A DNA stretch of 64,000 bases from Cyanophora paradoxa CCMP329 (GCA_004431415.1 QPMI01000425.1:55262-119261); one strand, 5' to 3'; counted from the stretch's first letter, positions 11,260 to 58,873 are shown. Notes: generated by a model from the sequence alone, not told the origin. Numbers and translations: made by a program.

Positions 11260-11279
11260 ACCGGAGAAAATAATTTCGG
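11260..11279 (-). promoter_or_regulatory. Conserved upstream motif (gene-sense CCGAAATTATTTTCTCCGGT); also at 17020-17039, 17589-17601, 18150-18160, 55689-55708 and 56104-56124
   Basis: Identical 20-mer at 11260 and 17020; each copy lies ~8-31 bp upstream of an ATG. Promoter function is inferred. Confidence 0.6.
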
Positions 11280-11285
11280 GGTTTG

Positions 11286-12668
11286 TTATGAACGAGATGA
11301 CCGAAGAATGCGCGTAGTAGGGGCTGTATAGCTTGCGCTCTGATTCTTGAATGATTTATACCACCTCTGACTGTTTACCTCTGAGAGCTTCTCAGTTCCC
11401 GCGATCGTTAATTTAGCGAGCTCTCTCAGCGCCCTCTTTGTCTTTTCTGCGCGATCTTCCAATAATGCGCCTTTTGGAACACTTGCGGCGACATCTATGC
11501 CTTCTTTTTGAACCTGCCGGATAGAGGCGGCTTCTATTTCGGCTGCTTTGATTGCGTTGCCTGATGGTTCCACCACAGCTTCGACCTCTGTAATGATCTG
11601 CAATTCGTGCGGCTTAAAAAGCTTCGGCATTACGTTTCCGGATGCATCTTGCACCTCTATTGCGTTTCCTCTCCTTCCCGCAATTTTGTAGACCTCTCGG
11701 CTATACCTTTGGGTTGCCCCTTTATCGAATTTCGATCTCGGCAATAACAGGCGGACGTGGAGACCCGGCTTAAAGTCGCTGAATATATCCTTGACGATTG
11801 TGTTCTTTCTTGAAATAATAGCCGCTCGGATCCGCTCCATATCTGAGAGCTTGACATCCCCGGGTTTCATTCCTATCGTTCTGTGAATGGTGTTGTTGTA
11901 ATTGAAAACAAAGTCGTCCAATTTATCCATAAATCGCACAGTGTTATAAGCGACACAGTAATTGTTTATCATCGTTTTAAGGGTCAAATGGAAGCGATTC
12001 ATTATTCCCAGCGATGTGTGATCTCCGACCTGTTTAAAGCGGTGCTCTATCGCATTATTTTTCACGACCTCCTGAAACTCCTTTGCGATGAATTCTGAAC
12101 CGTTATCTGTTTCCAATCGAATCATCGGAGCCGGGAGCTCTGTTAGCATCTCCGCAAAAGCGGCGGCAACACTTGCGCCCTCCTTATTCTTTAACTTCTT
12201 GGCATATGCTTTTCGACTTGTCATCTCGATGAGAGTAAGGACTGCAATGTAGCCGGAATTATAGCTGCCATATGAGAGATAAAAGATGAGATCGGCTTGG
12301 TAGCACCACGGCGGGGCTGTGATGGGAATAAAAGCGGTTTGGGTCGGTGCGGGGGGCTTCTTGTTGATCTGCATAAATTCCTGTTTCGCTGCGACATCTT
12401 GCACTTCTTTCAGTGTGAGGGTCTTGTCCTCTTTTCTCAGTTCTTCGTATATTGCGGATGGGTTCTTAAAACCTGTCTTCGGGTCATACATGCGTCGCAC
12501 GATCTTAGAGGACGGGTTAGCAATGCTAAAAGGAACATCTCCTAATAAATTTGATTTTGCTTGGCGTTTTGTAATTTTTTGGGGGACTTGCTCAGTTTCA
12601 GGAACCGCGATAGGTAGTATGGTGGTCTCTGTCTCCTCTCCCGCTACCCTTCTGACGATCCGTGACAT
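11286..12668 (-). CDS. Polinton-type retroviral-like (rve) integrase
   Basis: YQADL (D1), LETDNGSEF (D2), xRFHLTLK helix with N at the third acidic position, YNNTIHRTIGMKP, and VRLLLPRSKFDKG...YSREVY at the C-terminus. Confidence 0.93.
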   Translation of the reverse strand: MSRIVRRVAGEETETTILPIAVPETEQVPQKITKRQAKSNLLGDVPFSIANPSSKIVRRMYDPKTGFKNPSAIYEELRKEDKTLTLKEVQDVAAKQEFMQINKKPPAPTQTAFIPITAPPWCYQADLIFYLSYGSYNSGYIAVLTLIEMTSRKAYAKKLKNKEGASVAAAFAEMLTELPAPMIRLETDNGSEFIAKEFQEVVKNNAIEHRFKQVGDHTSLGIMNRFHLTLKTMINNYCVAYNTVRFMDKLDDFVFNYNNTIHRTIGMKPGDVKLSDMERIRAAIISRKNTIVKDIFSDFKPGLHVRLLLPRSKFDKGATQRYSREVYKIAGRRGNAIEVQDASGNVMPKLFKPHELQIITEVEAVVEPSGNAIKAAEIEAASIRQVQKEGIDVAASVPKGALLEDRAEKTKRALRELAKLTIAGTEKLSEVNSQRWYKSFKNQSASYTAPTTRILRSSRS

Positions 12669-12686
12669 TCTTCTAATTAACCCTGT

Positions 12687-15600
12687 TTATTTTTTGCTGC
12701 AATTGCACCCGTGATGCGCGAGTTGACAATTGTCTTTAAGGTGTGGGCGCTTATTATTGATGCGATCCACGACGAGCCTGTAATTCGGATCTTGCGGCTC
12801 AATCGGAATCGGAAGGGAACAGAGCGCACAGGCGCCCTTCTGTTGCTTCTTGCGCTCTAATATCCACTCTGGCGTAATATAATCCGCCTCGTCGAAATCG
12901 CGCCCGGCACGCTGATCCTGGCATTTATAACCGCGGATCTTCGTTTTCAGATATTCGATGTAGTCACTCTTTCCTTGGAATCTGTGAATCGGTGTATAAA
13001 TCAGCACAGTGGACAGATCGCGGTTACGAGTGAGCGCGGTATAGAACCATTCGCGAGTGGTATAGCGGAACGTAGCCTCACAAATGACAATGCCCGAATC
13101 AAGTGTGAGACCTTGCGTTGAATGACCTGTTCCTGCATAAGGGAGAGAAAAATGTTCTAACATCGCACACGGAACCTCGAACGTGACGCCATCGAAAACG
13201 TCAGTTAATGTGACCATTTGCTTGGTGATTTTGGTGATCCGATAGGTGTAATTTGTGTATGCATTAATAGACTCACCCTCAGACCGCGAAATGCGTAGAT
13301 ACCTGCGACAAACGACTTCCAGACCCTTGTAGAATTTGATTCCGTTGACCTCTACGGTTGCAATATTTACTTTTCGTCTATCGTGCATCAGTTTGTTATA
13401 GGCTAAGGTCATTTCGTTTCTGTAAGCGATGCCAAAGTAGCCGTCAGGAATTGCGTTTAGATCATTAATTGTCGGCAACCCGTATTTCGAGATAATCTGT
13501 GCGGCTTCGAGTCCGTTTTCGAAGAGATCCTCTTTAATCGCCCGAATTAATTCACGGTCTGTCTCCTTCTTGTGCCGCTTGTTAATGCGTAGACTCAGGA
13601 CGTTAGGGAACATGCTCTGCACAGCGCGCTTATAGTAGCCCTTGCGATCAGAAACCGATAGCTCATCATTAATCGGTTCATTTTGATAGGTGTCGCCATT
13701 AGCCAAATATTTGATATCCGGATAGCGATCGATAAACGACTTGATCTTAGCGAGATCTTTTACGGAATACGCGAATATCTCGTCGAACATAATGTGACTG
13801 AACTCGGAGACGAACGCCCTCTGGTCTTTTTCGCTCATAGCCTCTTCGTAGGTCTGATCATTTGAGACACGGATCCCGAGAACATTATACAAAGTGCGAA
13901 CGGTGATATTCTCGATTCCGCGGACTTTGAGAGAGTCCCTCAGCTCTGCGCACTGTTTGTTATAGGGGCAAATAACTAAGCAATTCGACTTTTGAGATGC
14001 GAAACAGTTAATACCGAGTGTCGACTTTCCACTTCCGGGCATGTCAGCAAGGACAAGCATACGATTATGGAGCTTCGCAACCCAATTAAAGCACTCCGGA
14101 TTAAATTCGTCCCTCAGCGAGAACCGGTTAATGAGTGTCTCGGGATCCTGAAATTCGAGAGTTACACCCCGTGGTGGGCGGAGTGCATTCTCAGGGCATC
14201 TTTTCCCGGGAATATAGCTGAATTTGCCCATGTTCTCAAACGCATTTCGGTCGAACTCTTTCTTACTTGTCCATGAACCTTCGATATATAGACAGTCCGT
14301 TCTGATCCCGGCAACCTTGTGCCCGCGCGCTGTCAGGCGCTTGTATTGCGCAAACATATTAGCGCGGTTACGATCGTAAATATGAAAGTGGATAGGAAGG
14401 AATCCGTTAACGAGCTCGCGGTGGGAGCTGATCTTAACGAAATAGATGTGACCTTCGAATTCGCTAAGAGTTTTGACACGTTTCGAATTCTTAGGATTGA
14501 AAGTAAACACCTCTACTGTTCCTCCGCATTCTTGGGCGAACCTCTCAGCCTCGGCACGGTTGTAGAACATTTTCGTGGATGTTTGCGAGTCTTGGAATTT
14601 GCCGAGCATTCCGATATCTTTCACTAAAAGGTGCTTCTTGTCTGTGGTTTGAATGTCACTTGAAAGCACTTTCTTCATCTCAGAGATCGACGTATTGGGC
14701 ACCAAATGCGAAGGCTCCGCGACCGCGATAATCTCTATCTTGTCCTTTACGTCCGCCCAATGCATGGAGAGAGTGTAGCCTGTCATGAAATTATAACAGC
14801 GACCACTCACGGAAAATGCGCGATCCAGAATAATTTCGATTCCGTCAATCTTGCGAGACATGGCGGCATCATAATCAATGTCCTCATCGTCGGCGAAAGT
14901 CGCTTGCTCTCTCTCAAACGCAACGACACGCACGTAGTAGATCGCGTATTCGAGAATATCGCTTCCCGCTTTAAAGGGAACGAAGTCATCGAATACATTG
15001 TATTTCGGAAGATATTGCATGCCTTTCAGTATCGAAGGATAGCACTTCGCCATATCGACAGCTGTGTAGGTAGCTTTCGGGTTCGGCTTATAGAAAAAGC
15101 CGCTTAGTGCGGATCGCTTGTAGTGCGTGAGAATTTCGCGCATGTTCGGGCTGTAATGTGAGATATTCGTCGCATTTAGTAGCGACTCGCGGAAACCCTT
15201 ACCGATTTCACAGACCTTATTATAATACTCTTCTGTTTCGAAATCTTGCTCAATAAAGTGGTCGGTTGTGCGTGGATCTTTGATAGAGAACATCGAGCCA
15301 TTAGCTTTGAATGTGATGCTGTCGATCTGTTTCGATGGTGTTAGCTTCACAGCGGGCTCATATCGCATTTTCAGGAACGTGAATAGAAGACCTTCCAGAC
15401 CTTCGCGCCCAGTGTAAAGAATGCGGATGAAACTGCGCTCGTCAGGCGATAGTTTTAATTGCGTGATCTTTAACAGATCCTTGGATGTGTGCGCGAAGAT
15501 ATCGTGAGTAAGACACGTCGGAATTTTATAGAGTGCTAACGAAGAGGTCGACTTAGGAACATGATTATCGAGCTCTTCGACCTCCATCTTTGCCATGCGC

Positions 15601-16997
15601 ATTTCGAGCGACTTGATGTTATCGTTGAATATATAGATATGCTTGTTGTGAATCATAAAGTGAATATTGCGGGGATTGATATTTTTGTTAATTGATTCTG
15701 CCGCGAATTTGTATACTAACTTTCCGTCGACATCAAAGACGCGGAAGCCTGTCTGGATTCTCTTACAGAATTTCTCAATATGGCGGAGGGTGAGAGCCAG
15801 AGAGTCGCCAGGTGTGCGTTCGCGACCGTGAAAGAATTTATAGAGACCGTCGTAGGACATAGTTAAGTCAGTATATCGCGGTTTTGGCGCCTCCTGACAC
15901 TTCTTAATGGACGCTCCCCATGTGGAGATGATCATATCGTAGCCGCAAGCGTTAGATGTCGATGATTTGGGAAGCTCAATAATATCTTCGAACTCAGACG
16001 CGTTTGGATTTAATGTGTAGTCTGTGAATTTGCTCATAATCGCGGTGCATCGCATGCTGTCCATTAGCTCCTCATCCAGAAACGCATAGCGATTTCCAGG
16101 GATAGCACCGGCTCCGTCATCTTCGACACCTTCGTCCCCATCGATCACGACCTCATGAACAGTTATAAAGGCATCATCGACACTGCCGCCAAAATCATCG
16201 AAACCTTTGCGTAGTTTTTTCTGTTCCTCGGTTGGTGGTGTCTTAAAGAAGAACATCTCGTATGCTTGTCCGAAAGTTCCCAGACCAATCTTCAATTCAT
16301 CGTAGTTTTCGAGTAAATCGAAGATTGAATCTCTCTCTTCCGAATAATAACGATTTTGAGCGGTGAGAATTCCATACACTCTATCGATCTTTGCCAGAGC
16401 AAAGTTTCGCAACACCCTCACCGAAACTGTCTCTCTTATATTCTGGTAGGTGACAAAGGTTCTGTCTTTTATATATGTTCCGGGAATTCCGGGAATAACA
16501 ATTACCTCCGACGACCGAGCACCGGATCCAGGTCCCCATAGCTTGAACGTAATTGTTGCGAGAGTTTCCGGATCGTATGCGGCGATTGGATCGAGAATAG
16601 TGCGTTTAATCGCATCCTCTACCGCTTTTAGTTTACCTCTCTGCTGCTTCGCTTCGAGTTTCGCTTCTTTCGCCCGTTTCTGTTCTCGTTTGCGATCGAA
16701 GCGCTGTAAACGCTTCGCCTCTTGTTCTTTTTGCTTTTGCTTTTCTATATTAACTTGGGTGCGAGCGGCGCGCTTCTCTTTCCGCTCTGCCCTGCGGAAA
16801 ACGCGGGGATTAATGATTCCATTCAGCGTATCCCGAATGTCTATCAGCGTTTGGAGCTTGGGCTTCCGATTCATTGTGTTGTGCATCGCCCAATGCGCCT
16901 GTTCTTCGGTTAGCAAATCCTGACTCAATCCCTGCATAATGTATCCGATAATTTCATCCCGAACATTGTTAGCGATTCTGTTGGTTGCGCGCGGCAT
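12687..16997 (-). CDS. Multidomain replication protein: N-terminal domain, vOTU-like protease, pPolB-like palm, SF1 (RecD/Pif1-like) helicase and C-terminal HNH-like Zn domain
   Basis: NACGYD...HNKHIY (Cys/His pair); PolB motifs AVDMAKCYPS, KDIGMLGK and IRTDCLY; helicase motifs DMPGSGKS, FDEI, GDTYQNEP, GHSTQGLT and YTALTR; CALC...DRINNKRPHLKDNCQLAHHGCN. Confidence 0.8.
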   Translation of the reverse strand: MPRATNRIANNVRDEIIGYIMQGLSQDLLTEEQAHWAMHNTMNRKPKLQTLIDIRDTLNGIINPRVFRRAERKEKRAARTQVNIEKQKQKEQEAKRLQRFDRKREQKRAKEAKLEAKQQRGKLKAVEDAIKRTILDPIAAYDPETLATITFKLWGPGSGARSSEVIVIPGIPGTYIKDRTFVTYQNIRETVSVRVLRNFALAKIDRVYGILTAQNRYYSEERDSIFDLLENYDELKIGLGTFGQAYEMFFFKTPPTEEQKKLRKGFDDFGGSVDDAFITVHEVVIDGDEGVEDDGAGAIPGNRYAFLDEELMDSMRCTAIMSKFTDYTLNPNASEFEDIIELPKSSTSNACGYDMIISTWGASIKKCQEAPKPRYTDLTMSYDGLYKFFHGRERTPGDSLALTLRHIEKFCKRIQTGFRVFDVDGKLVYKFAAESINKNINPRNIHFMIHNKHIYIFNDNIKSLEMRMAKMEVEELDNHVPKSTSSLALYKIPTCLTHDIFAHTSKDLLKITQLKLSPDERSFIRILYTGREGLEGLLFTFLKMRYEPAVKLTPSKQIDSITFKANGSMFSIKDPRTTDHFIEQDFETEEYYNKVCEIGKGFRESLLNATNISHYSPNMREILTHYKRSALSGFFYKPNPKATYTAVDMAKCYPSILKGMQYLPKYNVFDDFVPFKAGSDILEYAIYYVRVVAFEREQATFADDEDIDYDAAMSRKIDGIEIILDRAFSVSGRCYNFMTGYTLSMHWADVKDKIEIIAVAEPSHLVPNTSISEMKKVLSSDIQTTDKKHLLVKDIGMLGKFQDSQTSTKMFYNRAEAERFAQECGGTVEVFTFNPKNSKRVKTLSEFEGHIYFVKISSHRELVNGFLPIHFHIYDRNRANMFAQYKRLTARGHKVAGIRTDCLYIEGSWTSKKEFDRNAFENMGKFSYIPGKRCPENALRPPRGVTLEFQDPETLINRFSLRDEFNPECFNWVAKLHNRMLVLADMPGSGKSTLGINCFASQKSNCLVICPYNKQCAELRDSLKVRGIENITVRTLYNVLGIRVSNDQTYEEAMSEKDQRAFVSEFSHIMFDEIFAYSVKDLAKIKSFIDRYPDIKYLANGDTYQNEPINDELSVSDRKGYYKRAVQSMFPNVLSLRINKRHKKETDRELIRAIKEDLFENGLEAAQIISKYGLPTINDLNAIPDGYFGIAYRNEMTLAYNKLMHDRRKVNIATVEVNGIKFYKGLEVVCRRYLRISRSEGESINAYTNYTYRITKITKQMVTLTDVFDGVTFEVPCAMLEHFSLPYAGTGHSTQGLTLDSGIVICEATFRYTTREWFYTALTRNRDLSTVLIYTPIHRFQGKSDYIEYLKTKIRGYKCQDQRAGRDFDEADYITPEWILERKKQQKGACALCSLPIPIEPQDPNYRLVVDRINNKRPHLKDNCQLAHHGCNCSKK

Positions 16998-17166
16998 CTC
17001 TATTAGTTCTTTTAAAATAACCGGAGAAAATAATTTCGGCGCAATCTACCAAATTCTCCTTTTCATACCCTTGTCGCCAATTCTTTAAGTGCTTTTTTGA
17101 CGGATGCGGGGAATAAAAAGGGAGTTAAAAAATTAATCATTTTTTGCATCGTGCGGATACTTTCCG

Positions 17167-17580
17167 CTACGAAGTTTTTGCGTTCTCGACGACATGCTTT
17201 CGGGGTCTTCCAGCGGGCTTTTGCGGTTGGGGTTTAGCGGGCGGATTCAGCTTGCGTTCCGCTCTCTTTCTGCGTTGGTATTCCCTTGCCTTCTCTCGGA
17301 TTTTCTCCCGATACTCTTCATCATCTTGGTATCGCTGCTGTTTACGAATTGCAATCTTTTGTAGCTGCTCCGGGGTAAATACAGTCGCTTCCCCTGCGGC
17401 TAATCGCTCCTGCTTTTGTCTCTGATGCTTGTTTCGCTGCCGCTCTGCATCTTTCTCGCGTTTTAGTCTTAATCTCTCCGCCTTCTCCTCTTCTGTGATC
17501 ACCTTCTTCGGTCGCCCTGGTCTGCGCTTTTCCTGCTGTGCCGCCATCGCCTCTTGGTTTGAAATCTTGGGTTTCGCCAT
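17167..17580 (-). CDS. Small basic AT-hook DNA-binding protein
   Basis: RRPGRPKK and GRPRK motifs; RYQDDEEYRE shared with 55733..55960. Confidence 0.75.
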   Translation of the reverse strand: MAKPKISNQEAMAAQQEKRRPGRPKKVITEEEKAERLRLKREKDAERQRNKHQRQKQERLAAGEATVFTPEQLQKIAIRKQQRYQDDEEYREKIREKAREYQRRKRAERKLNPPAKPQPQKPAGRPRKHVVENAKTS

Positions 17581-17704
17581 TTACTATAACCGGAGAAAAT
17601 AGTTTTTTGTCACTCTGTATTATTTCCCTTGCCCTTATATACCTTTTACCGAAACCTTCAATTTTTGCGCTCGGATCGATACAAGCGCCACCGAAATTCA
17701 CCGC

Positions 17705-18118
17705 TCAATAATCGTTCCAGACGGTTCTTTCTTGTTGCTGAGGATATACATAAGGGTTTGTTAAGCTGTCATCGTCGCCTAATGCCATTTGATCCAATCT
17801 ATACATCGGATAAGGGGAGTCAGCGCGAAAATGTCCTTCCACAAATTCGGAACATGAGCGCCTTCTAATATGCTCTACATGCACGTCCTCTATCTGAGCG
17901 GTTTCGATATTAGAACTCATAGCCGTGGGCACAGGCGAGGGCGATCGAGAACGTGGGTGGTTGTGATTGTCGCTGTGGTTAGAATATACAGAAAGGCGCC
18001 TACCTCCATTCTCGTCGTCAGAAATATTAACCTCTACGGTTGTATCGCAGCAGGAGTTATGGCACGTGCTCGTGAAATGTAAATGAAACATCTCAATGCA
18101 TTGTGTGATGAAATTCAT
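17705..18118 (-). CDS. Conserved small Cys-Cys protein of unknown function
   Basis: N-terminus (IEMFxLH..S.CHxxCC...GGRRLS) homologous to 55299..55532. Confidence 0.75.
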   Translation of the reverse strand: MNFITQCIEMFHLHFTSTCHNSCCDTTVEVNISDDENGGRRLSVYSNHSDNHNHPRSRSPSPVPTAMSSNIETAQIEDVHVEHIRRRSCSEFVEGHFRADSPYPMYRLDQMALGDDDSLTNPYVYPQQQERTVWNDY

Positions 18119-18318
18119 CGATCCTACAAGGACGCAACGTATTAAATATCGGAGAAAATAAAAGGGAATGAGGCTATTGCTTGCTCGTGTGTTTCCTTAT
18201 GAGTTGGTCGACCTTATAATGCTGTTTATGGAGCCGACCTGTCCCTTTTGCAAGGGAATCCATATTAAAACTCGCTCTAAATACGGGCGGATTCATTTAT
18301 GTTTGAACGACTTGCATA

Positions 18319-18990: not shown

Positions 18991-19013
18991 TTACCATTAT
19001 GCGAGAAATTTAT

Positions 19014-19925
19014 TCAAAATTTACCCAATTTTTTCGCAAATTTTGGGCGGCGCTTTTCTTGGTATGCCAGCAATAGATTGGGGTCTTTGAGAAGGTCGGC
19101 TTCGATTATTCTTTTGGTGGATCGCTTTAAGGTGGCGACATTTCCACTCACAGGTTTCGTAATATCTGTGGTTTGGGGTTGGGCATCGTTTACCTCGCTC
19201 GAACTCTGTTTTACCGGCTGTTTACCAGCGGTCTTTATCTCGTCCACCGGCTTTTTAAAGAAGCGCTTGAATTTATATTCGTCAGGCACCGGATCAGCCT
19301 TGCCAACAGAGAATTCCAGGCTATATTTCGCATTGTTTACCACGATCACCTGATAGCTGTGACTGTATTCGGTCATCACCTTCTCGAACCACCGCTTTTC
19401 GTATGGATTAAACTCGTCCTCGGCGCTCTCCATCTCCTTTCTATTCGGCAATGAGAACAGGAATATATATTCGGCGTTTACTCTGAGTGTCGGCGAGATC
19501 TTCGTGAGTTTCTGTGACAAAATCCAGACGCTCACAAACAGATGGCGTCCAGCCGTGAAAAGACGATTTAATATAGGCTCACCCTTTCCCGACATCGATA
19601 AACTCGGATTATCAATAAAATCGTCCAGCACAATTAACAGGTTACCGACTTTCTCATTTTTCTTGATCCTCTCCTTGCGTTTCTCTATTATATTGTCGAT
19701 CAGCTTATGGTCGAAATCCTCATACAGATACGATGTGACATTGTCGTATTGATGATTCCAGATCGTGGAGGCGAAAATCATCACCGAATCTATCTTGTCC
19801 TCGTTGTGGTAAAGCAGGTATTTCAAAAACACTGACTTCCCAGTTGCAGTTTTGCCCACAAAAACGGCGCGATTCGGAAATTCCAGGCTTTCCGGGTCAA
19901 ACTCATCCAATCCTTGTGCATCCAT
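19014..19925 (-). CDS. A32-like (FtsK/HerA) genome-packaging ATPase
   Basis: Walker A GKTATGKS, Walker B LLIVLDD, GRH, SQK and LRVNAEY; probable start MDAQG at 19925. Confidence 0.93.
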   Translation of the reverse strand: MDAQGLDEFDPESLEFPNRAVFVGKTATGKSVFLKYLLYHNEDKIDSVMIFASTIWNHQYDNVTSYLYEDFDHKLIDNIIEKRKERIKKNEKVGNLLIVLDDFIDNPSLSMSGKGEPILNRLFTAGRHLFVSVWILSQKLTKISPTLRVNAEYIFLFSLPNRKEMESAEDEFNPYEKRWFEKVMTEYSHSYQVIVVNNAKYSLEFSVGKADPVPDEYKFKRFFKKPVDEIKTAGKQPVKQSSSEVNDAQPQTTDITKPVSGNVATLKRSTKRIIEADLLKDPNLLLAYQEKRRPKFAKKLGKF

Positions 19926-19971
19926 TTCCCTTATTAGAAAGATATAAAAATTACGAAACGCCACAGCCTGA

Positions 19972-49280: not shown

Positions 49281-49390
49281 TGTTCTATAAAACAGAATAA
49301 ATGAATTCAAGTGTGACAGGTAGTATTCAAATGATATTCAGTAAGAGATAGTTTTGTTTTTGAGAAAGTCAGTAAGAGGGGTGGAATGTC

Positions 49391-50283: not shown

Positions 50284-51199
50284 CCAGAAACTCCAACTGG
50301 AATGAGTTGTCAATCCCATTCATATCTACAAGATCACCATAATAATCGCGAAACTCAACTGTTAACTCTCTAATCACCAGGTTTCGATCGGTTATTTTTA
50401 TGTATTCACTGTGCTCTCCACTGTGATAAACATACTGCCCAATATCTTTACTTAACTGCAATCTGAGAATCGCCCCTTGATTCTGTGGTTGAGATTGTGG
50501 GACAATATTGTGGTTTGTAGCAAATGGGGAGAGTTCTTTAATGTGCATGTACAAGTACTGTTCTGCATTCATATCTGTCATCTTGGCTGCTTCTAACTTG
50601 TAGTTTAAGCGAGATGCCTCGAATTCATATCCTGTGAATGTTATTCCCCATTGGGGATGGTTTGGGGTGATTGGTACTCCTGCAAAATATAGGAAATTCT
50701 CTGGGGCATATAAAGACCTTGCAGACTCTGGGAAATCGTAGGTTTGCTCAATTGAAGCGACCCAATCAACAGAACTCACCCCAAGAAGTTTACCCAATCG
50801 CTGTGTAGATGCTACCAATTCGAATTGAACATTACTGTAAAACTCCAACTTGTAGGAGGTAGGATTGTAGTAGACCTTGAATGCATATGTGAGATTGTTG
50901 CTCCCAGTAAAGGTGAAATTCAGACCATAATTATATGGACTGGTGACCCCGAAATGCCCTTGATTAATATAACCACTTGGGAGAAGGAAGACCTGTTTGG
51001 TTTCAGAGATGCCTTGGTAGAAGAATCTGACAAGAAGGTGGTCTGTTCCAATGGAATTATAGATGCTGTTGGGGATCTCTGCATACAAAACTCGACATTC
51101 TCTTGGTTTGGTCACTGGGGTTGTGAGTGAAACTTTGTAGGAGTTTTCTATTTGTCCATCTGATCGGTCTCTGCTATCTATATTGACCAGCCGAATCAT
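50267..51199 (-). CDS. Minor capsid (penton-like) protein, counterpart of 22767..23741
   Basis: NIDSRDRS...AEIPNSIY...LTVEFRDYYGDLVDMNGIDNSFQLEF. Confidence 0.85.
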   Translation of the reverse strand: MIRLVNIDSRDRSDGQIENSYKVSLTTPVTKPRECRVLYAEIPNSIYNSIGTDHLLVRFFYQGISETKQVFLLPSGYINQGHFGVTSPYNYGLNFTFTGSNNLTYAFKVYYNPTSYKLEFYSNVQFELVASTQRLGKLLGVSSVDWVASIEQTYDFPESARSLYAPENFLYFAGVPITPNHPQWGITFTGYEFEASRLNYKLEAAKMTDMNAEQYLYMHIKELSPFATNHNIVPQSQPQNQGAILRLQLSKDIGQYVYHSGEHSEYIKITDRNLVIRELTVEFRDYYGDLVDMNGIDNSFQLEFLAIGND

Positions 51200-51227
51200 T
51201 TTAATATATGTTTATAGATAAAAGAAG

Positions 51228-52238
51228 ATGCCTGTGGATTACATCGAAGTGAGCTCTTTCAATACAATTTCGGGAGATGGACCAACTTCGAGTTTTATTG
51301 CTCGCCTCCCTAGCACCTATGAATTTGTGAGAGCAGTAAGACTGGTTTCAGCAGAATTCTATAACAGCATTCCCATGGTGAGTGGTGAAACCAAAGTAGG
51401 AGATGTGACAATAGATAATGCAATCTACCTTTATTGGTCTGAATATTATTCTGGTGCAGGAAGCACTGGTATTCCAACTGATCGACCTGCTGCCGATTAT
51501 GAGCAATGGAAGCACATTGTGATAAGTCGCAGCACACCCATTCAAAACCACCAACAACTGGTGAATGTAATTAACTCCAAACTTGCATTGAGAGAGCCAC
51601 CAGTAGCAATTCGCTGTAAATGGGATGATACACTGAAACGAGTAATATTCCATTCCACCATACCGTTTTACCTGGCTTTCTCAACTGCAATAAACCCAAC
51701 CCAGGCGCAGATTCAGAGGTTTTTGAGTTCTGCTCGACTGCTTGGTCTTGATCCTGGGAGATATGGTAACACCCCAATCCAATCACAAGTTTATAATACT
51801 CTGACTGATGGTATCTTTACTGGGTCGATGGTGCATGGTATCATATCTTCATTTGAACCTGAAAAGACCAGGGATAGTGTTCTGTTTGTGAGAGTAAAGG
51901 AGTTGGGTGATCTGGTTCAATGTGGTGATGGTCTCCTCACTGGATATTTCCACAAAATCGTTGTTCCAGATAAAGATTATGGTGAGCATGTCGTTTATAA
52001 TTCGACAGAAGCCCATCCGATTTATAAATACTATAACAAGAATCTGGGACTTTCCACATTTTCGGTTGATATTGTGAATGCAGTTAATGAACCAATTGAT
52101 TTCGAGGGTCAACCTGTCCACCTCACCTTCGAAATTCGATATGGTGATGAACCTGCTGGTGATCCTGTGTACGAATACTTCAAGAGGAGAATGGCGGAAA
52201 CACATCCATCTTATCCTGTTATTGCGAATTTTGCGTAA
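51228..52238 (+). CDS. Minor capsid (penton-like) protein, counterpart of 21453..22739
   Basis: YIEVSS...LP...VRAVRLVSAEFYNSIP; FSVDIVN...LTFEI. Confidence 0.8.
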   Translation: MPVDYIEVSSFNTISGDGPTSSFIARLPSTYEFVRAVRLVSAEFYNSIPMVSGETKVGDVTIDNAIYLYWSEYYSGAGSTGIPTDRPAADYEQWKHIVISRSTPIQNHQQLVNVINSKLALREPPVAIRCKWDDTLKRVIFHSTIPFYLAFSTAINPTQAQIQRFLSSARLLGLDPGRYGNTPIQSQVYNTLTDGIFTGSMVHGIISSFEPEKTRDSVLFVRVKELGDLVQCGDGLLTGYFHKIVVPDKDYGEHVVYNSTEAHPIYKYYNKNLGLSTFSVDIVNAVNEPIDFEGQPVHLTFEIRYGDEPAGDPVYEYFKRRMAETHPSYPVIANFA

Positions 52239-52292
52239 AATCAAGGATCATTGGTGAATTTTTTATGTTGCAGTATAATAAAAGAGATAATC

Positions 52293-53666
52293 ATGGATAT
52301 TACTTCGACCCTCCAACGTCTTTCTCTGAAAGAAGCTCTAACAACCCCGGAAGAAGCCAAGGCGTTCTTCTTGGACAACTCTCTCATGCTTGGTCTTGAA
52401 TCCAAGTCGAAGCCAGTTCTTGTTGTTGTGAACCCAAGCAACACTTTCGAGAATAATGCTGGAAATCGCATTTCTTTCAAGCTCCCTCGCTACAATTTCT
52501 GTGGAAAACTCGAACTTGCGTTTGACCTTCCAGCTGTCACTTTTGCTGGTGATACCGACCTTGTTCGCAATGGATACGTTCGCCCAGTTGGTGCTCTTGT
52601 CTCTCGACTTGAAATTACCTATGGATCTTACACCTTCCATGTGCCTTCTGATTTCCTCGCTCATTTCCCTCTTATCTATTACAGTGAGGATCAACTCGCC
52701 AAGAAGAAGCGTTCAATGGGAATGGTTCATGGTATCCCTGCCCATGGAACCAACCGACTTGGTGGGTCATTTTTCACTGAAATCCCAGTCCCATGGCTAA
52801 ACCACTACCTACCTCTTGGTGCTCTCTCAGGAGAAATGGTGGTAACTGTCTGGTTCAAGGATGCTGGAAAGGGTTATGTTGAGACTTCTTATGGTGGTCG
52901 TGCTCTTCCTGTTGTTGGTGGAACAGCTGCTGATAAGACAGAGGATGATGGACTTGGTGCTACTGCTAATGCTACTCTTGCCCATGTTGGTCAACAAATC
53001 ACCACTTTTGGAATTGGTGCAACAACAACCCCCGAAATTAAAGTCACTTCTCCTCGTCTTTACATGCATGCTATTAATGTTTCTGATGAACTGTTTGCTA
53101 CTGTCATTGAGAAGGTGAAGACCACTGGTATGGCTATTCCTGCTCTGGATATTGGTTTTGTAGACAGTGTCAATTTTGCTGCAAAAGGCAATGCTCAACC
53201 AAATCGTATTAACCTGTCACAGATCTCTGGTCTTGTCTATGGTCTTCTTGTTTCAGTTCGTGATGCCGCAGGTATTGATGGTTTCAATGGTTCCCACAGT
53301 GTCCTAAAAACGCATGCTAACTCAAAAGACATTACTTTCACTGTTGAAATTAATGGTCAACGTCTCTATGCTACTGAGCCCATCCCTCTCCTCAAAGGTG
53401 CCGAATTAATTGCGGATGCCTTCAAGTGCTCAAATATGGACAAGGTTGCAGACAAATATGTCCTCAGTGGTCTACCATTCTGTGTTGATGGAGAGAAAGC
53501 GATTCGCAACATTGCCCAGTCTGGCTATGTTGATCTCACGAACTCCTCCTCTTCTTTCCTTACTCTATACATGCCTTCTGACCAGACAATCACAGTTAAT
53601 GTTCGTGCTCTCATGCACAGTTTCATTATTGTTGACAAAGATGGTCTTCGTCGCATTAATCTGTAA
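52293..53666 (+). CDS. Putative double jelly-roll major capsid protein
   Basis: Homologous to 19972..21420 (MDITSTLQRLSLK vs MDPTTSLSRLTLK); same gene context. Confidence 0.78.
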   Translation: MDITSTLQRLSLKEALTTPEEAKAFFLDNSLMLGLESKSKPVLVVVNPSNTFENNAGNRISFKLPRYNFCGKLELAFDLPAVTFAGDTDLVRNGYVRPVGALVSRLEITYGSYTFHVPSDFLAHFPLIYYSEDQLAKKKRSMGMVHGIPAHGTNRLGGSFFTEIPVPWLNHYLPLGALSGEMVVTVWFKDAGKGYVETSYGGRALPVVGGTAADKTEDDGLGATANATLAHVGQQITTFGIGATTTPEIKVTSPRLYMHAINVSDELFATVIEKVKTTGMAIPALDIGFVDSVNFAAKGNAQPNRINLSQISGLVYGLLVSVRDAAGIDGFNGSHSVLKTHANSKDITFTVEINGQRLYATEPIPLLKGAELIADAFKCSNMDKVADKYVLSGLPFCVDGEKAIRNIAQSGYVDLTNSSSSFLTLYMPSDQTITVNVRALMHSFIIVDKDGLRRINL

Positions 53667-53728
53667 AACCATTATCAGTAACGTTTCGTTATTTTTATCT
53701 ATCTTTAATAAGAAAGATCTACAAAGCC

Positions 53729-54485
53729 ATGTCTGACGTTCCCGAATTTAATGCTGCTGAGATGATTAAACCCCTTTTCGCGTATTAGCAATCGGAAAAA
53801 GCGCGACGGGCAAGTCAGAAGCCGTAAAATATTGGCTAAAACAACTTCACGATGCGAAAAAGTTAGATGTTGTTCTTGTTATAAGTGGACATCATTCAAT
53901 CATTTTTGGGATGATGTCGCAACATTACAGCTCGGTAAATGGGATGCGCCTTACATCGCTAAACTTCTCGATGAAAGACAAGAGAAAATTGAGAAAGGAG
54001 AACCCGTTAATCAATTATGTGTTGTTCTCGATGATCTTATAGACAATGAGATTGTAGACCTTACCCGTGATAAAATTATTGGATCTCTGTATTCGCGCGG
54101 CCGCCACTCGGCGATTACAATTTTCTGCATAACTCAGAAACTGCGTAAGGTTTCTTCAACCATTCGCGTCAATTCGGATTATGCAATGTTCCTCAGTGCC
54201 GCCAATCGCAAAGAACTGGAAGCCATTGAAGAAGAATACAATATCATGCGGGATAAAGACGCTTTCTATAAGATGTTTGAGGAATACGTTCACTCCTATC
54301 AGTTTCTCATTTGGAGTTCTGCGAATTATTCGGTGGAATACTACGTTGATAAAGCGGAACTCGTTAAAGACTTTAAGTTTCCTCGGTTCCACAGGAAGCC
54401 CAAAAAGAAAGAGGACGAATTACCACCTCCACAGAAAGAGGAAGCCCCAAAGAGGTCAAGAGTGGTGTTCATTCGAATAAACTGA
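53729..54485 (+). CDS. A32-like packaging ATPase with two apparent frameshifts near the 5' end
   Basis: MSDVPEF start; IGKSATGKS (Walker A) in a second frame; VVLDD, GRH, TQKL and IRVNSDY in ORF 53832..54485. Confidence 0.85.
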
Positions 54486-54536
54486 TGCGATATAAGAGAG
54501 GTTTATAAAATAATCTCTGCTTCTAATAAATATACA

Positions 54537-55271
54537 ATGCCTTCCAAACGCAAAGTTGGTGTTCCTGCTGGTGCTATGTCATATTCTGCATCCTCTGGAA
54601 CCGGTTCTATTAACACAGAGCCCATGAAATTCAATGGTGTCAATGAAGTTAAAGCATCACAGCAACAAGAAGATCCCCTCAATGCTGCTTACGAAGAATC
54701 ACCAGATGATAAAGCTCCCCAAGCTTCCACAAGTGACCAGTTGAATATTTCGCCCGAAACCTCTAAGATGAAGGCAGTTGGTGAAGGTGCTCGTCGAATT
54801 ATTGGTGCTGCTGATGACAAAGGACTGGGTCTCCAAGATCTGTCCCTTGCTCGCAAAGGTGAAGGTGTATCCAAAGAATCAGACAAGGTAATTCAATCCA
54901 TGGCTGGTGAGGTAACCTACAAGGTCGCACCTACACAGAATATCCATCGAATTCCCAAAGCCCAATGGGACGAAATGACTGCGAAACTTAAAGATCTGGA
55001 AGCGAAATCCAGTGCTCTTGAACAGTATGTCTCTGAGAAGAAAGAGAGAGCGAAATTAAAGGAGATGCTGCGAAAGGAGGTGTATAGAATGGGAATCACT
55101 GGTCTCCCAGATAAGCAATTCATTGGTAAGAAAGAGACTCAAATTGATGAGCAGGCAGTTGATGAGATGAAGACCAAAACCCAAAAGGGCACCATTGAAC
55201 CTGGTGCTACCAAATCAGAGGTCGATAAAGGTGTTGCCCCAACAGTATATAAACGACGAGTATGGCTTTAA
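54537..55271 (+). CDS. Conserved hypothetical coiled-coil protein
   Basis: Homologous to and syntenic with 18319..18990. Confidence 0.7.
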   Translation: MPSKRKVGVPAGAMSYSASSGTGSINTEPMKFNGVNEVKASQQQEDPLNAAYEESPDDKAPQASTSDQLNISPETSKMKAVGEGARRIIGAADDKGLGLQDLSLARKGEGVSKESDKVIQSMAGEVTYKVAPTQNIHRIPKAQWDEMTAKLKDLEAKSSALEQYVSEKKERAKLKEMLRKEVYRMGITGLPDKQFIGKKETQIDEQAVDEMKTKTQKGTIEPGATKSEVDKGVAPTVYKRRVWL

Positions 55272-55298
55272 TTATCTCGCATTAAGAGAGAGAGCATC

Positions 55299-55532
55299 AT
55301 GGATTTCTTGCGAAAAATCATAGAGATGTTTAATCTCCACATTGTGAGCAATTGTCACAGTGGCTGCTGTGAAACCAAAGTCGAAATCGAGTTTTCAGAT
55401 ACTGAAAGCCACGGATCTGGTGGTAGGAGATTATCCACAGACTCGGTGGATTTCGAGGAGCATATTAAAACAGAGACTGTGAGGCGACGCTCTGTATCTT
55501 TCACAGATCCGAAATTAAATCTCGGAAATTAA
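55299..55532 (+). CDS. Conserved small Cys-Cys protein
   Basis: Homologous to 17705..18118. Confidence 0.75.
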   Translation: MDFLRKIIEMFNLHIVSNCHSGCCETKVEIEFSDTESHGSGGRRLSTDSVDFEEHIKTETVRRRSVSFTDPKLNLGN

Positions 55533-55732
55533 TATCGAATGCTCAGTCTCTCTGAGATCTATGCTATCCTTGAAAGGAAATCCGCTGAATATGCAACAGA
55601 AGACGCAATAAAAAAGCGTAGACAGGAACTGGTCTCGATCTGCAAAAAATGACAAGGGATTTAAGGGTAAGGTGTGTTTGATTGGTGAACCGGACAAATT
55701 ATTTTCTCGTCCCATTATAAGGAACATATCAA

Positions 55733-55960
55733 ATGGAAACTGAATCTGTGGTCGAATTCGAACTTGCAATGAGCGAGGTGGATCCCAATGAGAGGAAAAG
55801 GTTGTATGACCGCTTGTATTTCCAGAAACGCTATCAAGATGAGGAATTTCGAGAAGTATATCGTAAAAAGGCACTGGAACGATATTATCGCAGGAAAGCT
55901 GCTGAGATGGATCCCAATAATCCAGTGAAACGCCCAGTAGGTCGTCCCAGAAAATACTGA
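55733..55960 (+). CDS. Small AT-hook protein
   Basis: KRYQDEEFRE...KRPVGRPRKY; homologous to 17167..17580. Confidence 0.75.
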   Translation: METESVVEFELAMSEVDPNERKRLYDRLYFQKRYQDEEFREVYRKKALERYYRRKAAEMDPNNPVKRPVGRPRKY

Positions 55961-56153
55961 ACCGCCCCCAAAGTCCCAGATATCCGCTGAATCCTTTTTG
56001 TTACCATGATCAATCGACTTTTCGATGGATCATTACCATACATCGAGCGCCAATCGGAGAACCCAAAGGTATTTAAAGGTTAGGCGCCAAAAAATGACAA
56101 GCGACCGGAGAAATTAATTTCTCCATTAAGGATAAGAAGCCCCGATTGTTGAA

Positions 56154-58517
56154 ATGAACGCTGCCGCCAAGAAATCCCTGAAACGCCTTGTTGAATGGCT
56201 TCGTGAAGACGATGTCCTGTCTGAGAATATCGTTATTCCTGTTGATCCTGATACCAAAAAGCCACTTTTCGCTCATAAAGACGGAACCTGGTCTTGGGAT
56301 AAATTCGATGAAGCCCTGAAATCCGGTAAATATACTGCTTGGGGCATTCTCGCTCGTAATATCCTGGTAATTGACTTCGACCAAGAGGAGGATTTCGCCA
56401 AATTCGAGGAGCAATTCCCTGATGATTTCGGTGGTGTTAATCCTCTTGCTAAAACCAAAAAAGGATATCATGCATTCTTCGCTCGACCTGCTGAATTCGA
56501 CACCATTAAGATCTGGGATAAAGCGGGTGCATTCAAAGGAAACCCCAAGATCGACTGCAAAACGATTGCATCCACTGGGACTGCTGGGGTGATTAATGTT
56601 TGCCCCAGTCCCAACAAAACATGGATCAGAGAGCCATGGGCATCTGAGTGTGAGTTAAATGAACCCACTGCTGAGTTGCAAAAGTGGATTGTTGAAAACT
56701 ACGAATTCCCCAAAGGTGCACATTCTTATTATGCAAGGTGCGCTGAGGAGAATTTGCAGAAACATATTCTTTCTAAACTCGAAGAATTCGGTTTCATCTT
56801 GCCCACAATCATCAATGAGACCAAGATGGGATACAATTTCACTGCTGAGAACAAAGGTCTGGTCTGTCCCTGCTGCAAGGGAAGCCATGACTCGAACAAT
56901 TGGTATATTGTTCAAGGGAAGGAGAAGGACAAATATATTGTTTCGAGTTACAGTGCAAACTGCAAGAAGCGACTTATCACAATTCGTGTGAAGGAAGAGA
57001 CAGATGCGAATATCGAAAATCTGATTGATCGGTCTGCTGGATCTGATGGTGCCCATTATGATGTTGCACAGGTTGCCTATCTTGTTCTGCAAGACAAATA
57101 CAAGTATTCCAACAAGACCTGGTTCAAGTTCAATGATGTATGTGGGATTTGGGAGATGGATGAAACTGGGAAGCGAATCTTTCTCTGTTTGAGCTGCAAG
57201 GTCTGTCCAGTTTATCTTCAACGTTCTGTTCAACTCGCACAGAGAGCTCTTCGTGATGAAGAGAACCGCAATTCCTTGGAGGAAAGGTCAAAGATTCTGC
57301 TGGGAATTGCTAAGAGCCTCAAACAGACTACATACAGAACTGCACTTATGTCTGATCTTTCAGTTCTGTTCAGTGACAAGACCTTTTTCGAGAGACTTGA
57401 TACTGTTCCCAACATCATTGGATTTACAAATGGTGTATTTGACTTGAACTCCATGACTTTTCGAAAGGGACTCCCAGATGATATGGTGAGCAAGACTGTT
57501 GGCTACGATTATACCACAGAAATCGACCAAGAGAAGGTTGCAAAGATTAAATCCATCTATGCAGATATTATTGAATCGGATACAGACCGCGAATTCATGC
57601 TGGGATTAATCGCCTATGCCCTGAGTGGTTTGACAGAAAATCAGAGATACACTTGCTGGACTGGAATTGGAGCAAATGGGAAATCACTGCTCCAAGAGTT
57701 GGTGAAAGACACATTTGGTGAGTATTATGGGTCACTGGACATGACATATTGGACTAAACCCAAGAAGAGTTCGTCAGAGGCTTCCCCAGAACTTGCTTGC
57801 ATTCTTGGTAAACGAATTGTTTTCAGTAATGAAGCAGAAGATGGTGATATGCTTCAACTGAACAAAATCAAACAGGTTACTGGTGGGAATGAGATGAAGG
57901 TTCGAGCTCTTTTCAAAGATCTTGTTACATTCATTCCCATGTTCCAGTTGTTCTTGTCCACAAATGACAACCTGGGAATCAGTAAACCAGATGCAGCAAT
58001 CCAAAGGCGAATTATCTACTACCGATTCGAAAATGTCTTCAAGGTCGATCCTCAGCCTGGTGAGAAGAAAGCAGATACCACTCTAATGCGCCTAATGAAG
58101 AATGATGACGATTATAAAATGGCGCATATGTCCATTCTCCTGGAAATGTGGAGAACCCATTCTCTCAATGAATTCGTCACCAAACCACCCCAGTCCATTG
58201 TTGATCAAGGTGTTGAATATTTCAATGAGAATGACAAGATTGGAGAATGGATTCGTGAGAGTTATGAACTCACCAAGAGTCAAGGGGATTTCGCCACAAG
58301 TGAGTCCATTATCAGTCACTTTAAGATGGATCACATGGGCAAATCTGATGAGAAAATCACAGAATGCACTATCTTGAAGAGACTTCGCGAAGTCTTTAAT
58401 GTGAAGGCTGAGAGAAAGCGAGTCAATGGTGTTCTTGCTCGTGGCTACTTTGGGATCAAAAAGAAGCATAGTCGCAAGTTGGTGGATGACAGTGATGTTG
58501 AAGGTGGGGATGAGTAA
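56154..58517 (+). CDS. Prim-Pol (AEP) primase fused to a D5-like SF3 helicase
   Basis: LVIDFD and TKKGYHAFF (Prim-Pol); CPCCKGSH Zn motif; IGFTNGVFDL (D5_N); GIGANGKS Walker A; KRIVFSNE Walker B; LSTN sensor; IQRRI. Confidence 0.92.
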   Translation: MNAAAKKSLKRLVEWLREDDVLSENIVIPVDPDTKKPLFAHKDGTWSWDKFDEALKSGKYTAWGILARNILVIDFDQEEDFAKFEEQFPDDFGGVNPLAKTKKGYHAFFARPAEFDTIKIWDKAGAFKGNPKIDCKTIASTGTAGVINVCPSPNKTWIREPWASECELNEPTAELQKWIVENYEFPKGAHSYYARCAEENLQKHILSKLEEFGFILPTIINETKMGYNFTAENKGLVCPCCKGSHDSNNWYIVQGKEKDKYIVSSYSANCKKRLITIRVKEETDANIENLIDRSAGSDGAHYDVAQVAYLVLQDKYKYSNKTWFKFNDVCGIWEMDETGKRIFLCLSCKVCPVYLQRSVQLAQRALRDEENRNSLEERSKILLGIAKSLKQTTYRTALMSDLSVLFSDKTFFERLDTVPNIIGFTNGVFDLNSMTFRKGLPDDMVSKTVGYDYTTEIDQEKVAKIKSIYADIIESDTDREFMLGLIAYALSGLTENQRYTCWTGIGANGKSLLQELVKDTFGEYYGSLDMTYWTKPKKSSSEASPELACILGKRIVFSNEAEDGDMLQLNKIKQVTGGNEMKVRALFKDLVTFIPMFQLFLSTNDNLGISKPDAAIQRRIIYYRFENVFKVDPQPGEKKADTTLMRLMKNDDDYKMAHMSILLEMWRTHSLNEFVTKPPQSIVDQGVEYFNENDKIGEWIRESYELTKSQGDFATSESIISHFKMDHMGKSDEKITECTILKRLREVFNVKAERKRVNGVLARGYFGIKKKHSRKLVDDSDVEGGDE

Positions 58518-58584
58518 ACAAAACAGAATCGATTCTAATACTGATTGAATTTCTTATTTTTTAAAAACCTTACTGTAAATGGTT

Positions 58585-58725
58585 TGTGTGACAGCTGTGA
58601 CACCTTTTTAATTGAGTGTGACGCCTGTGACGCCTGTGACGCCTACTTTCAAACTTTTTAAAATTTCAAAAATCTACAAACCTCTGAAAACAGGTGTCAC
58701 AGGCGTCACAGGCGTCACACCCAAT
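58585..58725. promoter_or_regulatory. Third, inverted copy of the iteron module, directly downstream of the primase-helicase
   Basis: TGTGACGCC x3, AT-rich spacer, GG(C/T)GTCACA x3; the spacer is similar to the reverse complement of ~49419-49467. Confidence 0.6.
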
Positions 58726-58873
58726 TAACCACAGACTCCCCCCTGTGGGTCGATGACTTTTTCGATTCTTTATCGGACAATATAAAAAAACGTATCGTAA
58801 ATCGGTGTGTTTTGACAAAAATTGACTGGCGATTTAAGGGATCATTGCGTTTTCCCTTTGACTTTGACAGAAC

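Follow-up and report, generated by a model that had tools for sequence, protein, structure and literature searches.

Shared upstream motifs in two endogenous polinton-like viruses of Cyanophora paradoxa and the question of a giant-virus helper

Introduction

How most integrated polinton-like viruses (PLVs) are switched on is an open question, a few being dependent on giant viruses and others replicating alone. The question is raised anew by a stretch of 64,000 nucleotides from Cyanophora paradoxa CCMP329 (GCA_004431415.1, QPMI01000425.1:55262-119261; hereafter the window, meaning the whole stretch that was analysed), in which two low-GC blocks (GC 0.435 and 0.417) stand against a background of 0.59 GC. 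These blocks are two related endogenous PLVs, of which one (A) is intact and the other (B) is decaying. An initial annotation of the window had noted motifs common to the upstream regions of A and B, and had proposed that the elements are transcribed by a giant-virus helper and could act in host defence. The present analysis found two motifs that are shared by the elements and enriched ahead of their genes, one of which resembles the early promoters of giant viruses.

The reading of upstream motifs in endogenous PLVs and virophages as helper signatures is an established theme, and glaucophyte PLVs have already been catalogued, as the available text of PMC12220804 shows. No promoter analysis of glaucophyte PLVs was found in the open-access literature, though supplements or closed-access work may differ, and the supplements of PMC10120064 or the Zenodo data of PMC12220804 may list these elements; the word 'promoter' is absent from the main text of PMC12220804, and the main text of PMC10120064 makes no mention of Cyanophora, glauco or promoter.

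Two motifs shared by the upstream regions of A and B

In an unbiased search, all words of 8, 9, 10 and 12 letters with one wildcard and at least two G or C were counted in the 150 nt upstream of 24 genes and compared with 300 dinucleotide shuffles. The word CAAAAA.TGA, present ahead of six genes, exceeded all 300 shuffles (family-wise p 0.0033), as did TTA.TTTCTC in six genes and A.TTTCTC in eight (family-wise p 0.0033), so that the central claim of the initial annotation, namely that both elements have common and positionally enriched upstream motifs, is borne out.

The first motif, CAAAAAWTGA, occurs six times in the 64 kb against 0.84 copies expected (0 of 100 shuffles), and every copy is gene-sense and 42-149 nt ahead of a start codon (P about 8e-5 against intergenic DNA only). 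It is found upstream of 6 of 13 non-structural and none of 11 structural genes (Fisher p 0.016, with gene classes as assigned in this analysis). AAAATTGA and AAAAATGAC, which had been reported as separate motifs, are both present at their sites and are united by this one pattern, which adds two sites in A. All six cores fit WWWWWTGW, the mesomimivirus early pattern as quoted in the accessible part of 10.1101/2022.07.28.501842. According to the portion of PMC5294985 that was available, AAAATTGA is the early promoter of mimivirus and CroV and forms the core ahead of a delayed-early gene of IIV-6, the mimivirus early promoter lies within 150 nt of the start, and the chlorovirus element AATGACA lies at -60 to -90. 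Judged by sequence, CAAAAAWTGA is like the early promoters of giant viruses in shape, strand and distance, and like the motif common to Gezel-14T and its helper; the resemblance that had been proposed stands for this motif.

The second motif has a short core, AWWWTCTC, which 10 of the 24 genes, the capsid gene of A included, carry in gene-sense orientation at -20 to -41 (0.9 expected, 100-nt windows); the longer word WATTTTCTCCG has four copies against 0.08 expected (0 of 100 shuffles). Ahead of six non-structural genes the core is extended to a 12-bp half-site that ends in CCGGT and contains one CpG. This half-site is matched at 12, 12, 12 and 11 of 12 positions in the sense orientation in A, and at 11 and 12 of 12 in the antisense orientation in B, and it precedes the AT-hook gene in both elements. 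The sites given in the initial annotation are all present to within 0-3 nt, and the four in A (11260, 17020, 17589 and 18148-18150) are gene-sense on the minus strand, as had been said. The orientation given for B did not hold: there the CCGGT-bearing 15-mer is antisense (one mismatch at 56104, three at 55689), and only the short AWWWTCTC core is gene-sense. The perfect palindrome placed at 56104 does exist, its exact span being 56107-56124. Since the short core is directional while the long site occurs in either orientation, a promoter element may here be overlaid by a site to which a dimeric protein binds, and the sequence suggests that the TTTCTC dyad is operator-like. An orientation-independent dyad of this kind was not found described for PLVs or virophages in the open-access literature.

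Spacer conservation and weaker or excluded signals

Among the orthologous or syntenic spacers of A and B, three of seven align above shuffles, namely two with the motifs and one with a 31-nt block between the capsid and A32 genes that the initial annotation had not noted, and four are at chance. The motifs are thus kept at matching spacers though the capsids are only 38% identical. The 31-nt block gives the best-scoring spacer alignment and is a candidate terminator-plus-promoter. DNA contigs of two runs on 16960-17730 represent many family variants. The motif cores make up 56 of the 293 intergenic bases there and are free of substitutions, all 17 of the listed intergenic sites lying outside them (P 0.024); as the variant listing covers 40 of 66 rows, this substitution evidence is weak.

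The (C/T)TTAA(A)G(G) motifs of the initial annotation are likewise present at their sites. YTTAAAG shows a nominal enrichment, being present in 5 of 24 windows where 0.8 would be expected (nominal p 0.0005); TTAAGG occurs in 3 of 24 windows against 0.88 expected (p 0.053). They are not among the top words of the unbiased search, TTAA(A/G)G words lying outside the top 12 at all four word lengths. YTTAAAG is kept in a diverged remnant end beside A, and one family variant turns it into TTAAGG.

Several other candidates were rejected: GGCGAC before the helicase gene, which has three variant sites inside it; an E2F-like site before the zinc-finger gene, of which the diverged remnant has no copy left; DTAAG as a start motif of general use (10 of 24, with 8.9 expected); and the punuivirus AAANAACATAAG, the TetV TCCGGA and the marseillevirus-type AAATATTT, each of which is found in 0 of 24 upstream regions. 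The late-type TATCTA of Mavirus and CroV is not enriched, being present in 3 of 24 windows where 1.03 would be expected (p 0.083). No matching motif was found in the accessible parts of PMC8400408, 10.64898/2026.07.28.741278, 10.64898/2026.10.09.758095 and PMC8502044.

The two elements and their surroundings

The positions of the motif sites, genes and element boundaries are collected in Table 1.

Table 1. Motif sites, conserved blocks and genes of elements A and B, with positions counted from the first letter of the window
Feature	Position	Strand	Remarks
Early-type core	17137-17146	-	-149 from A PolB-like/SF1 helicase gene
Early-type core	17658-17667	-	-87 from A AT-hook gene
Early-type core	49987-49996	+	-42 from B DUF5710-like gene
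Early-type core with AATGACA	55643-55652	+	-90 from B 75-aa gene; TTAAGG 8 nt past core
Early-type core with AATGACA	56088-56097	+	-66 from B D5 primase-helicase gene
Early-type core	58816-58825	+	-58 from B 63-aa ORF preceding PolB; TTAAGG 8 nt past core
TTTCTC site, half-site 12/12 gene-sense, partial dyad	11260-11283	-	core -25 from A DUF5710 gene
TTTCTC site, half-site 12/12 gene-sense, partial dyad	17020-17043	-	core -34 from A helicase gene
TTTCTC half-site, 12/12 gene-sense	17589-17600	-	core -20 from A AT-hook gene
TTTCTC half-site, 11/12 gene-sense	18148-18159	-	core -41 from A 137-aa gene
B dyad site, half-site 11/12 antisense and gene-sense core	55689-55712	+	core -32 from 75-aa gene
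B dyad site, half-site 12/12 antisense and 10/12 sense	56104-56127	+	contains the perfect 18-bp palindrome; begins 6 nt past early core
Short AWWWTCTC core	19003-19010	-	-20 from A 223-aa gene
Short AWWWTCTC core	21441-21448	-	-28 from A major capsid gene
Short AWWWTCTC core	54510-54517	+	-27 from B 244-aa gene
Short AWWWTCTC core	55271-55278	+	-28 from B 77-aa gene
CACTTAAAG, weaker motif class	9235-9243	+	before zinc-finger gene; also 17083-17091 (-) and remnant end 7311 (-)
31-nt block between capsid stop and A32 start	19930-19960	-	26/31 identical to B copy; p 0.001 against shuffles
B copy of 31-nt block, before A32	53682-53712	+	spacer alignment
Element A, intact endogenous PLV	8876-35025		26.15 kb; inverted repeats, 6-bp flanks, rve integrase, A32 ATPase, double jelly-roll capsid
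6-bp target-site duplication, left copy	8870-8875	+	identical to right flank; RNA-type contigs cross empty site
6-bp target-site duplication, right copy	35026-35031	+	identical to left flank
A left terminal inverted repeat	8871-9742	+	carries 107-aa zinc-finger gene, 9268-9591
A right terminal inverted repeat	34159-35030	-	zinc-finger gene copy, 34310-34633
A S-adenosylmethionine decarboxylase gene	10514-10906	+	Pfam PF02675
A DUF5710 gene	10932-11246	-	family scan
A retroviral-type (rve) integrase	11286-12668	-	PF00665
A 1436-aa replication protein	12687-16997	-	SF1 helicase; endonuclease VII-like domain at the C terminus
A 137-aa basic AT-hook protein, candidate DNA binder	17167-17580	-	orthologue of B 55733-55960 (56% over 50 aa)
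A packaging ATPase (A32), from internal ATG	19014-19925	-	PF04665, E 6.7e-10
A major capsid protein, 482 aa	19972-21420	-	fold comparison
A fibre-like protein, 3451 aa	23760-34115	+	tail repeats, C-terminal H-type lectin
Element B, related PLV	48900-64000		left end approximate (~49 kb); right end beyond window
B major capsid protein	52293-53666	+	38% identical to A capsid
B D5-like primase-helicase	56154-58517	+	family scan; Bodo saltans virus D5 (31%) among the matches
B protein-primed DNA polymerase B, first open frame	59122-61791	+	PF03175

PLVs are marked by a length of 14-40 kb, terminal inverted repeats, a 5-6 bp target duplication, an integrase, a double jelly-roll capsid and an A32-type packaging ATPase (PF04665), and all of these are present in A; in B the A32 orthologue is interrupted, as are the PolB and rve (integrase) reading frames. 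The terminal inverted repeats of A are 872 nt long and 100% complementary. The CpG observed/expected ratio is 1.01 in A, and B, at 0.59, is CpG-depleted. No protease family, such as would correspond to the cysteine maturation protease of virophages (Maveriviricetes), was matched by any scanned open reading frame (ORF) of A, although a divergent one could escape such a scan; the elements may work like virophages without being members of that class.

The genes of B are orthologous to and mostly syntenic with those of A (capsid 38%, ATPase 38%, small genes 29-56% identity), the AT-hook gene being the best-conserved small gene common to both. The genes adjoining the capsid (428 and 324 aa in A, 336 and 310 aa in B), candidates for the minor capsid (penton) genes that PLVs have in this place, are orthologous and have no significant family match. 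The replication modules differ, B having a D5 primase-helicase and PolB and A the 1436-aa helicase-bearing protein. The latter is seemingly a fusion of a degenerate PolB-like part, an SF1 helicase and an endonuclease VII-like end, its PolB-like motifs having been recognised by eye and without profile confirmation. In the fibre gene of A there are in-frame repeats of 36 nt (12 aa, His-rich) and 39 nt (13 aa) within 30323-31123 and 29125-29475, as well as a domain that is internally duplicated about 2.3 kb apart.

The capsids of both elements were recognised by fold alone. A model of the A capsid (pLDDT 59) is a double jelly-roll, and Foldseek comparison with the PDB matched iridovirus (E 2.5e-15) and PBCV-1 (5e-15) capsid chains; against BFVD the best value was E 2.6e-17, and the named matches were almost all capsid proteins. 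In the comparison with the PDB, made with a moderate model, the Sputnik and mavirus capsids rank only 39-44, below those of iridovirus, chlorovirus and EhV. By sequence the capsid had no match in the PDB, and a word-indexed protein search gave no capsid homologue. A profile built from both capsids found three relatives among 1.84 billion proteins, the best of which is a Cyanophora paradoxa gene model. No related loci were found in viral contigs with capsid, integrase, five-sequence capsid alignment or ATPase alignment queries, nor in metagenomes with a two-sequence capsid alignment or the ATPase alignment. On the strength of the model and these searches, the capsids appear to form a distinct PLV capsid lineage.

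The ends and spacers of the elements have features of their own. The heptamer CAGTAAG/CTTACTG occurs four times at each end of A (9010-9116 and 34791-34891), in the remnant (7436-7627), in six copies at the left end of B (49339-49853) and also at 58569-58575, and is a candidate origin or end-binding iteron common to the families. Two TGACAGSTGTC dyads in the subterminal spacer of A (10247-10287) resemble the TALE-homeodomain (MEIS/TGIF/KNOX) dimer site, which would hint at control by the host life cycle. Nested inverted TGTGACGCC arrays lie at the left end of B (49380-49830), and recur in B's interior, where 134 nt are copied in inverted form in the stretch from D5 to PolB (58587-58730); B may be two fused elements or have an internal origin. 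The start codons of the divergent penton-candidate genes are separated by 27 nt in A (22740-22766) and 28 nt in B (51200-51227), nearly pure A/T, a spacer that by its sequence looks like a minimal bidirectional promoter. Divergent spacers of this size resemble the compact promoters of large DNA viruses.

Element A sits about 100 nt past the stop codon of a histone H3-like host gene that is divergent and has two introns (8213-8772, plus strand; gene structure read by eye). RNA-type contigs from three runs of two studies show this gene spliced at GT..AG and continuing into the sequence right of A; as they span the target junction of A, an empty site was present in those samples, and the insertion of A is polymorphic or on one allele only. 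The RNA-type contig sets (n=3) have cover in 4-5 of 30 bins over 6-24 kb, nearly all of it at the host gene and the repeat ends; such contigs are unable to show absence and were not counted as evidence. On the opposite side of the H3-like gene, about 1.2 kb from A, is the remnant end of a second A-family element (6271-7690), about 82% identical and with its own zinc-finger gene (6955-7278); in four runs there is a loose end at 7687, as if the remnant were absent there. Helitron-like helicase fragments (47458-48717), with a 28-bp hairpin at 48624-48708, lie directly left of B. Host tandem arrays occupy 1-6250 and 40788-43500, with a 149-nt unit and with units of about 350 nt that have poly-G tracts, and a 29-nt near-palindrome recurs in the first array at 1247, 4111 and 6053.

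By what machinery might the genes be read?

Scans of the ORFs with Pfam, NCBIfam and PHROG gave no match to an RNA polymerase subunit, to TBP or to TFIIB, so that an outside machine must read the genes; TBP (PF00352) had no match at E <=0.01, or at E <=1 for 14 proteins, in a window that ends at 64000 within B. Giant-virus endogenous elements have been reported in C. paradoxa (PMC12344493, in the text available for section 9). Together with this, the 27-28 nt between divergent start codons, the presence of Bodo saltans virus D5 among the matches of the B primase-helicase, and the reactivation of endogenous Tetraselmis PLVs by a giant virus lend circumstantial support to a helper. The reading that we favour, at about even chances, is transcription driven by a helper on the model of Gezel-14T, in which the first motif is read by the early machinery of a giant virus, replication genes come first, and the second motif drives or tunes later expression with the palindrome as operator. 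On this model the CAAAAAWTGA core would be an early promoter for the transcription machinery of a co-infecting giant virus: the early factors of the helper would bind the core on infection, transcripts would start about 10-20 nt downstream (the TTTAAGG that lies 8 nt past two B cores being a candidate start site), and replication proteins would be made first. The short TTTCTC core, just ahead of the start codon, would act as a later-stage signal that drives or tunes later genes, that of the capsid included. The extended half-site or palindrome would bind a dimeric protein that damps or switches early expression, for which the shared AT-hook protein is one candidate. Protection of the host would be a further step beyond helper-driven activation and is an extrapolation.

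A number of observations weigh against helper-driven transcription. Window-wide, the bare 8-mer AAAATTGA, which the initial annotation had taken as a signal, is at chance level (5 copies against 5.5 expected; 66 of 100 shuffles reach 5) and two of its five copies are in coding DNA (53170 and 53985), so that the 8-mer alone proves nothing; its enrichment is one of position only, 3 of the 24 upstream regions containing it where 0.37 would be expected (p 0.0065). One upstream copy, at 17658 (-), had been missed. The nominal p values for single patterns in the 24 upstream windows, namely those for AAAATTGA, YTTAAAG, TTAAGG and TATCTA, concern patterns picked after looking, and the sample consists of two related elements. 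Seven of the 13 non-structural genes, including the integrase and the PolB of B, are without a core of their own, and the TTTCTC core is absent at -20 to -41 in 14 of the 24 genes. Poxvirus-type TTTTTNT terminators were rejected, as coding DNA is poor in T-tracts on either strand, which leaves no strand-specific termination signal; mimivirus-type terminator hairpins, sought as perfect stems of at least 9 bp, are lacking in A and represented in B only by the 9-bp palindrome. Hairpins at Mimiviridae-type 3' ends have stems of about 13 bp or more. The claim that the main motif, ATTATTTTCTCCGGT, is a giant-virus promoter was not sustained, for it occurs in both orientations and the TTTCTC element matches no giant-virus promoter motif in the available text of the literature examined. 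In IMG/VR the exact 17-mer dyad pattern gave 12 single matches, of which 9 lie within long ORFs, those on both giant-virus metagenome-assembled genome contigs among them, and 2 have an ATG within 60 nt; these matches are read as chance, a degenerate 24-letter pattern of the B core had no match there, and no contig in the pattern scans had multiple copies. The longer WWWWWTGWWWWW consensus, as given in the accessible part of PMC11502894, fits only one of the six early-type cores, that before the helicase gene of A.

Some of the same evidence lends itself to the view that the motifs are host RNA polymerase II promoters, with a chlorovirus-like element read by host or virion-borne factors, and that the elements can cycle without a helper and are silenced by CpG methylation. 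The early-type core is equally close to AATGACA, an element used by viruses that rely on the host polymerase, and the core alone therefore does not show a helper; in B this chlorovirus early element occurs in two cores, at -85 and -61, inside the chlorovirus hot spot. Phycodnaviruses are mostly without RNA polymerase, and chloroviruses use that of the host (PMC5294985, in its available part). PLVs can replicate independently of giant viruses (PMC10945749), and expression of PLV capsid genes where giant viruses are not detectable occurs in other algae, cryptophytes included (PMC12220804; both as far as their accessible text goes). Repeats and viral genes are subject to CpG methylation in C. paradoxa, which may be set beside the CpG depletion of B and the CpG of the half-site, and both the poor fit to WWWWWTGWWWWW and the lack of mimivirus-type hairpins and strand-specific T-tracts suit host transcription. 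Nevertheless, AAAAWTGAC and AWTTTCTC occur at 0 per kb in about 21 kb of non-element window DNA, although only one recognised host gene is there; next to a host gene with introns, all scanned ORFs of the elements read as uninterrupted frames; with spacers of 18-54 nt there is scant room for host-type 5' untranslated regions; and the E2F-like site is not kept in the remnant. Host transcription is thus the main rival, a possibility to be taken seriously, if an unlikely one.

A bolder proposal is that the glaucophyte PLVs carry a hybrid switch, in which a giant-virus early promoter that senses the helper is overlaid by a CpG-containing palindromic operator for a dimeric regulator, either their own or methylation-sensitive. 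The two motifs would then be a fingerprint of the giant virus of glaucophytes, and of an inducible antiviral provirus system in the third primary-plastid lineage; we consider this doubtful. It is improbable, though conceivable, that the TTTCTC dyad is the operator of a circuit encoded by the elements, in which the AT-hook or zinc-finger protein would set latency against replication and the A-rich core would be an accessory AT-rich promoter element. The change of half-site orientation between the four A and two B sites would fit such an operator, autoregulation would predict a half-site ahead of the AT-hook gene in both elements, and this gene is also the best conserved of the small ones. AT-hooks show little sequence specificity in their binding to AT-rich minor grooves, which counts against the proposal, as does the fact that neither TBP nor a recognised fold for sequence-specific DNA binding was found among the ORFs, and the short core, gene-sense at 10 sites with a tight distance to the ATG, suits a directional promoter element. 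Such an operator can coexist with either helper or host transcription.

That the TTTCTC sites instead serve the upstream gene, as signals for termination or polyadenylation at its 3' end, seems highly improbable. At five of ten sites the spacer is short enough to bring the motif to within about 25 nt of a stop codon as well, and the B palindrome could form a short RNA hairpin; however, all five long spacers (124-200 nt) have the core 20-41 nt from the next ATG (P about 4e-5, the window having been chosen after looking), which argues for a 5' element rather than a terminator, and most A sites are half-sites, unable to form a hairpin. That the motifs match by chance because the spacers are AT-rich, or are neutral remains of a shared ancestry, is largely refuted and scarcely credible: the chance frequency of AAAATTGA and the use of two related elements would be in keeping with this, but the motifs are significant family-wise against composition-matched shuffles, recur before non-homologous genes within each element, and persist despite the divergence of the capsids. 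If the early core is indeed shared with a giant virus, helper-dependent PLVs would extend to the glaucophytes and the motif would point to their giant virus, and the orientation-independent TTTCTC dyad would add a regulatory layer for PLVs. The two motifs offer a cheap and direct test of PLV activation in an alga that is probably culturable.

Comparison with known systems

The closest model for helper-driven transcription is Gezel-14T (PgVV-14T), a PLV of Phaeocystis globosa that depends on PgV-14T and has the early motif of its helper upstream of its polymerase gene (10.1101/2022.07.28.501842, here as in the next sentences by its accessible part). In contrast to A and B, that PLV has an isolated helper, whose early genes supplied the motif. 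Gezel-14T uses a tyrosine recombinase and TVpol, in contrast to the rve integrase and the PolB-like/SF1 helicase or D5 plus PolB of A and B, and the TTTCTC dyad is not mentioned for it.

Like the EMALEs and mavirus of Cafeteria burkhardae (PMC8547959 and PMC10945749, in their available text), A and B are integrated, bounded by terminal inverted repeats and equipped with an rve integrase, with type-specific upstream motifs recognised by motif search and with variable insertion sites. EMALEs are true virophages, and those of type 4 have the CroV late motif TCTA; A and B, by contrast, have no TATCTA enrichment and no detected protease, and giant-virus capsids ranked above those of mavirus and Sputnik in the fold search with the A capsid. 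The likeness to chloroviruses, whose elements include AATGACA and ATGACAA (PMC5294985, accessible part), resides in the AATGACA before the 75-aa and primase-helicase genes of B. Unlike in chloroviruses, ARNTTAANA, GTNGATAYR and AAAAATANTT are found in 0 of 24 upstream regions, and AATGACA is present in two of the six cores.

For Cyanophora paradoxa itself, Table S6 of PMC12220804, in the part available, gives 156 PLVs (read as an element count), of which 139 have PF04665 and 66 have PF02675, with 0 in nine protease columns, and one C. paradoxa PLV in that study has a PTR-PTR-H_lectin fibre like that of A. In Tetraselmis striata, which is a green alga, endogenous PLVs are reactivated by TetV-2 and the yield of the giant virus is reduced (10.1101/2025.10.09.676808, whose promoter passage, in the accessible text, concerns EMALEs). 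With these Tetraselmis PLVs, for which reactivation is demonstrated, A and B share a conserved structural module combined with swapped replication modules.

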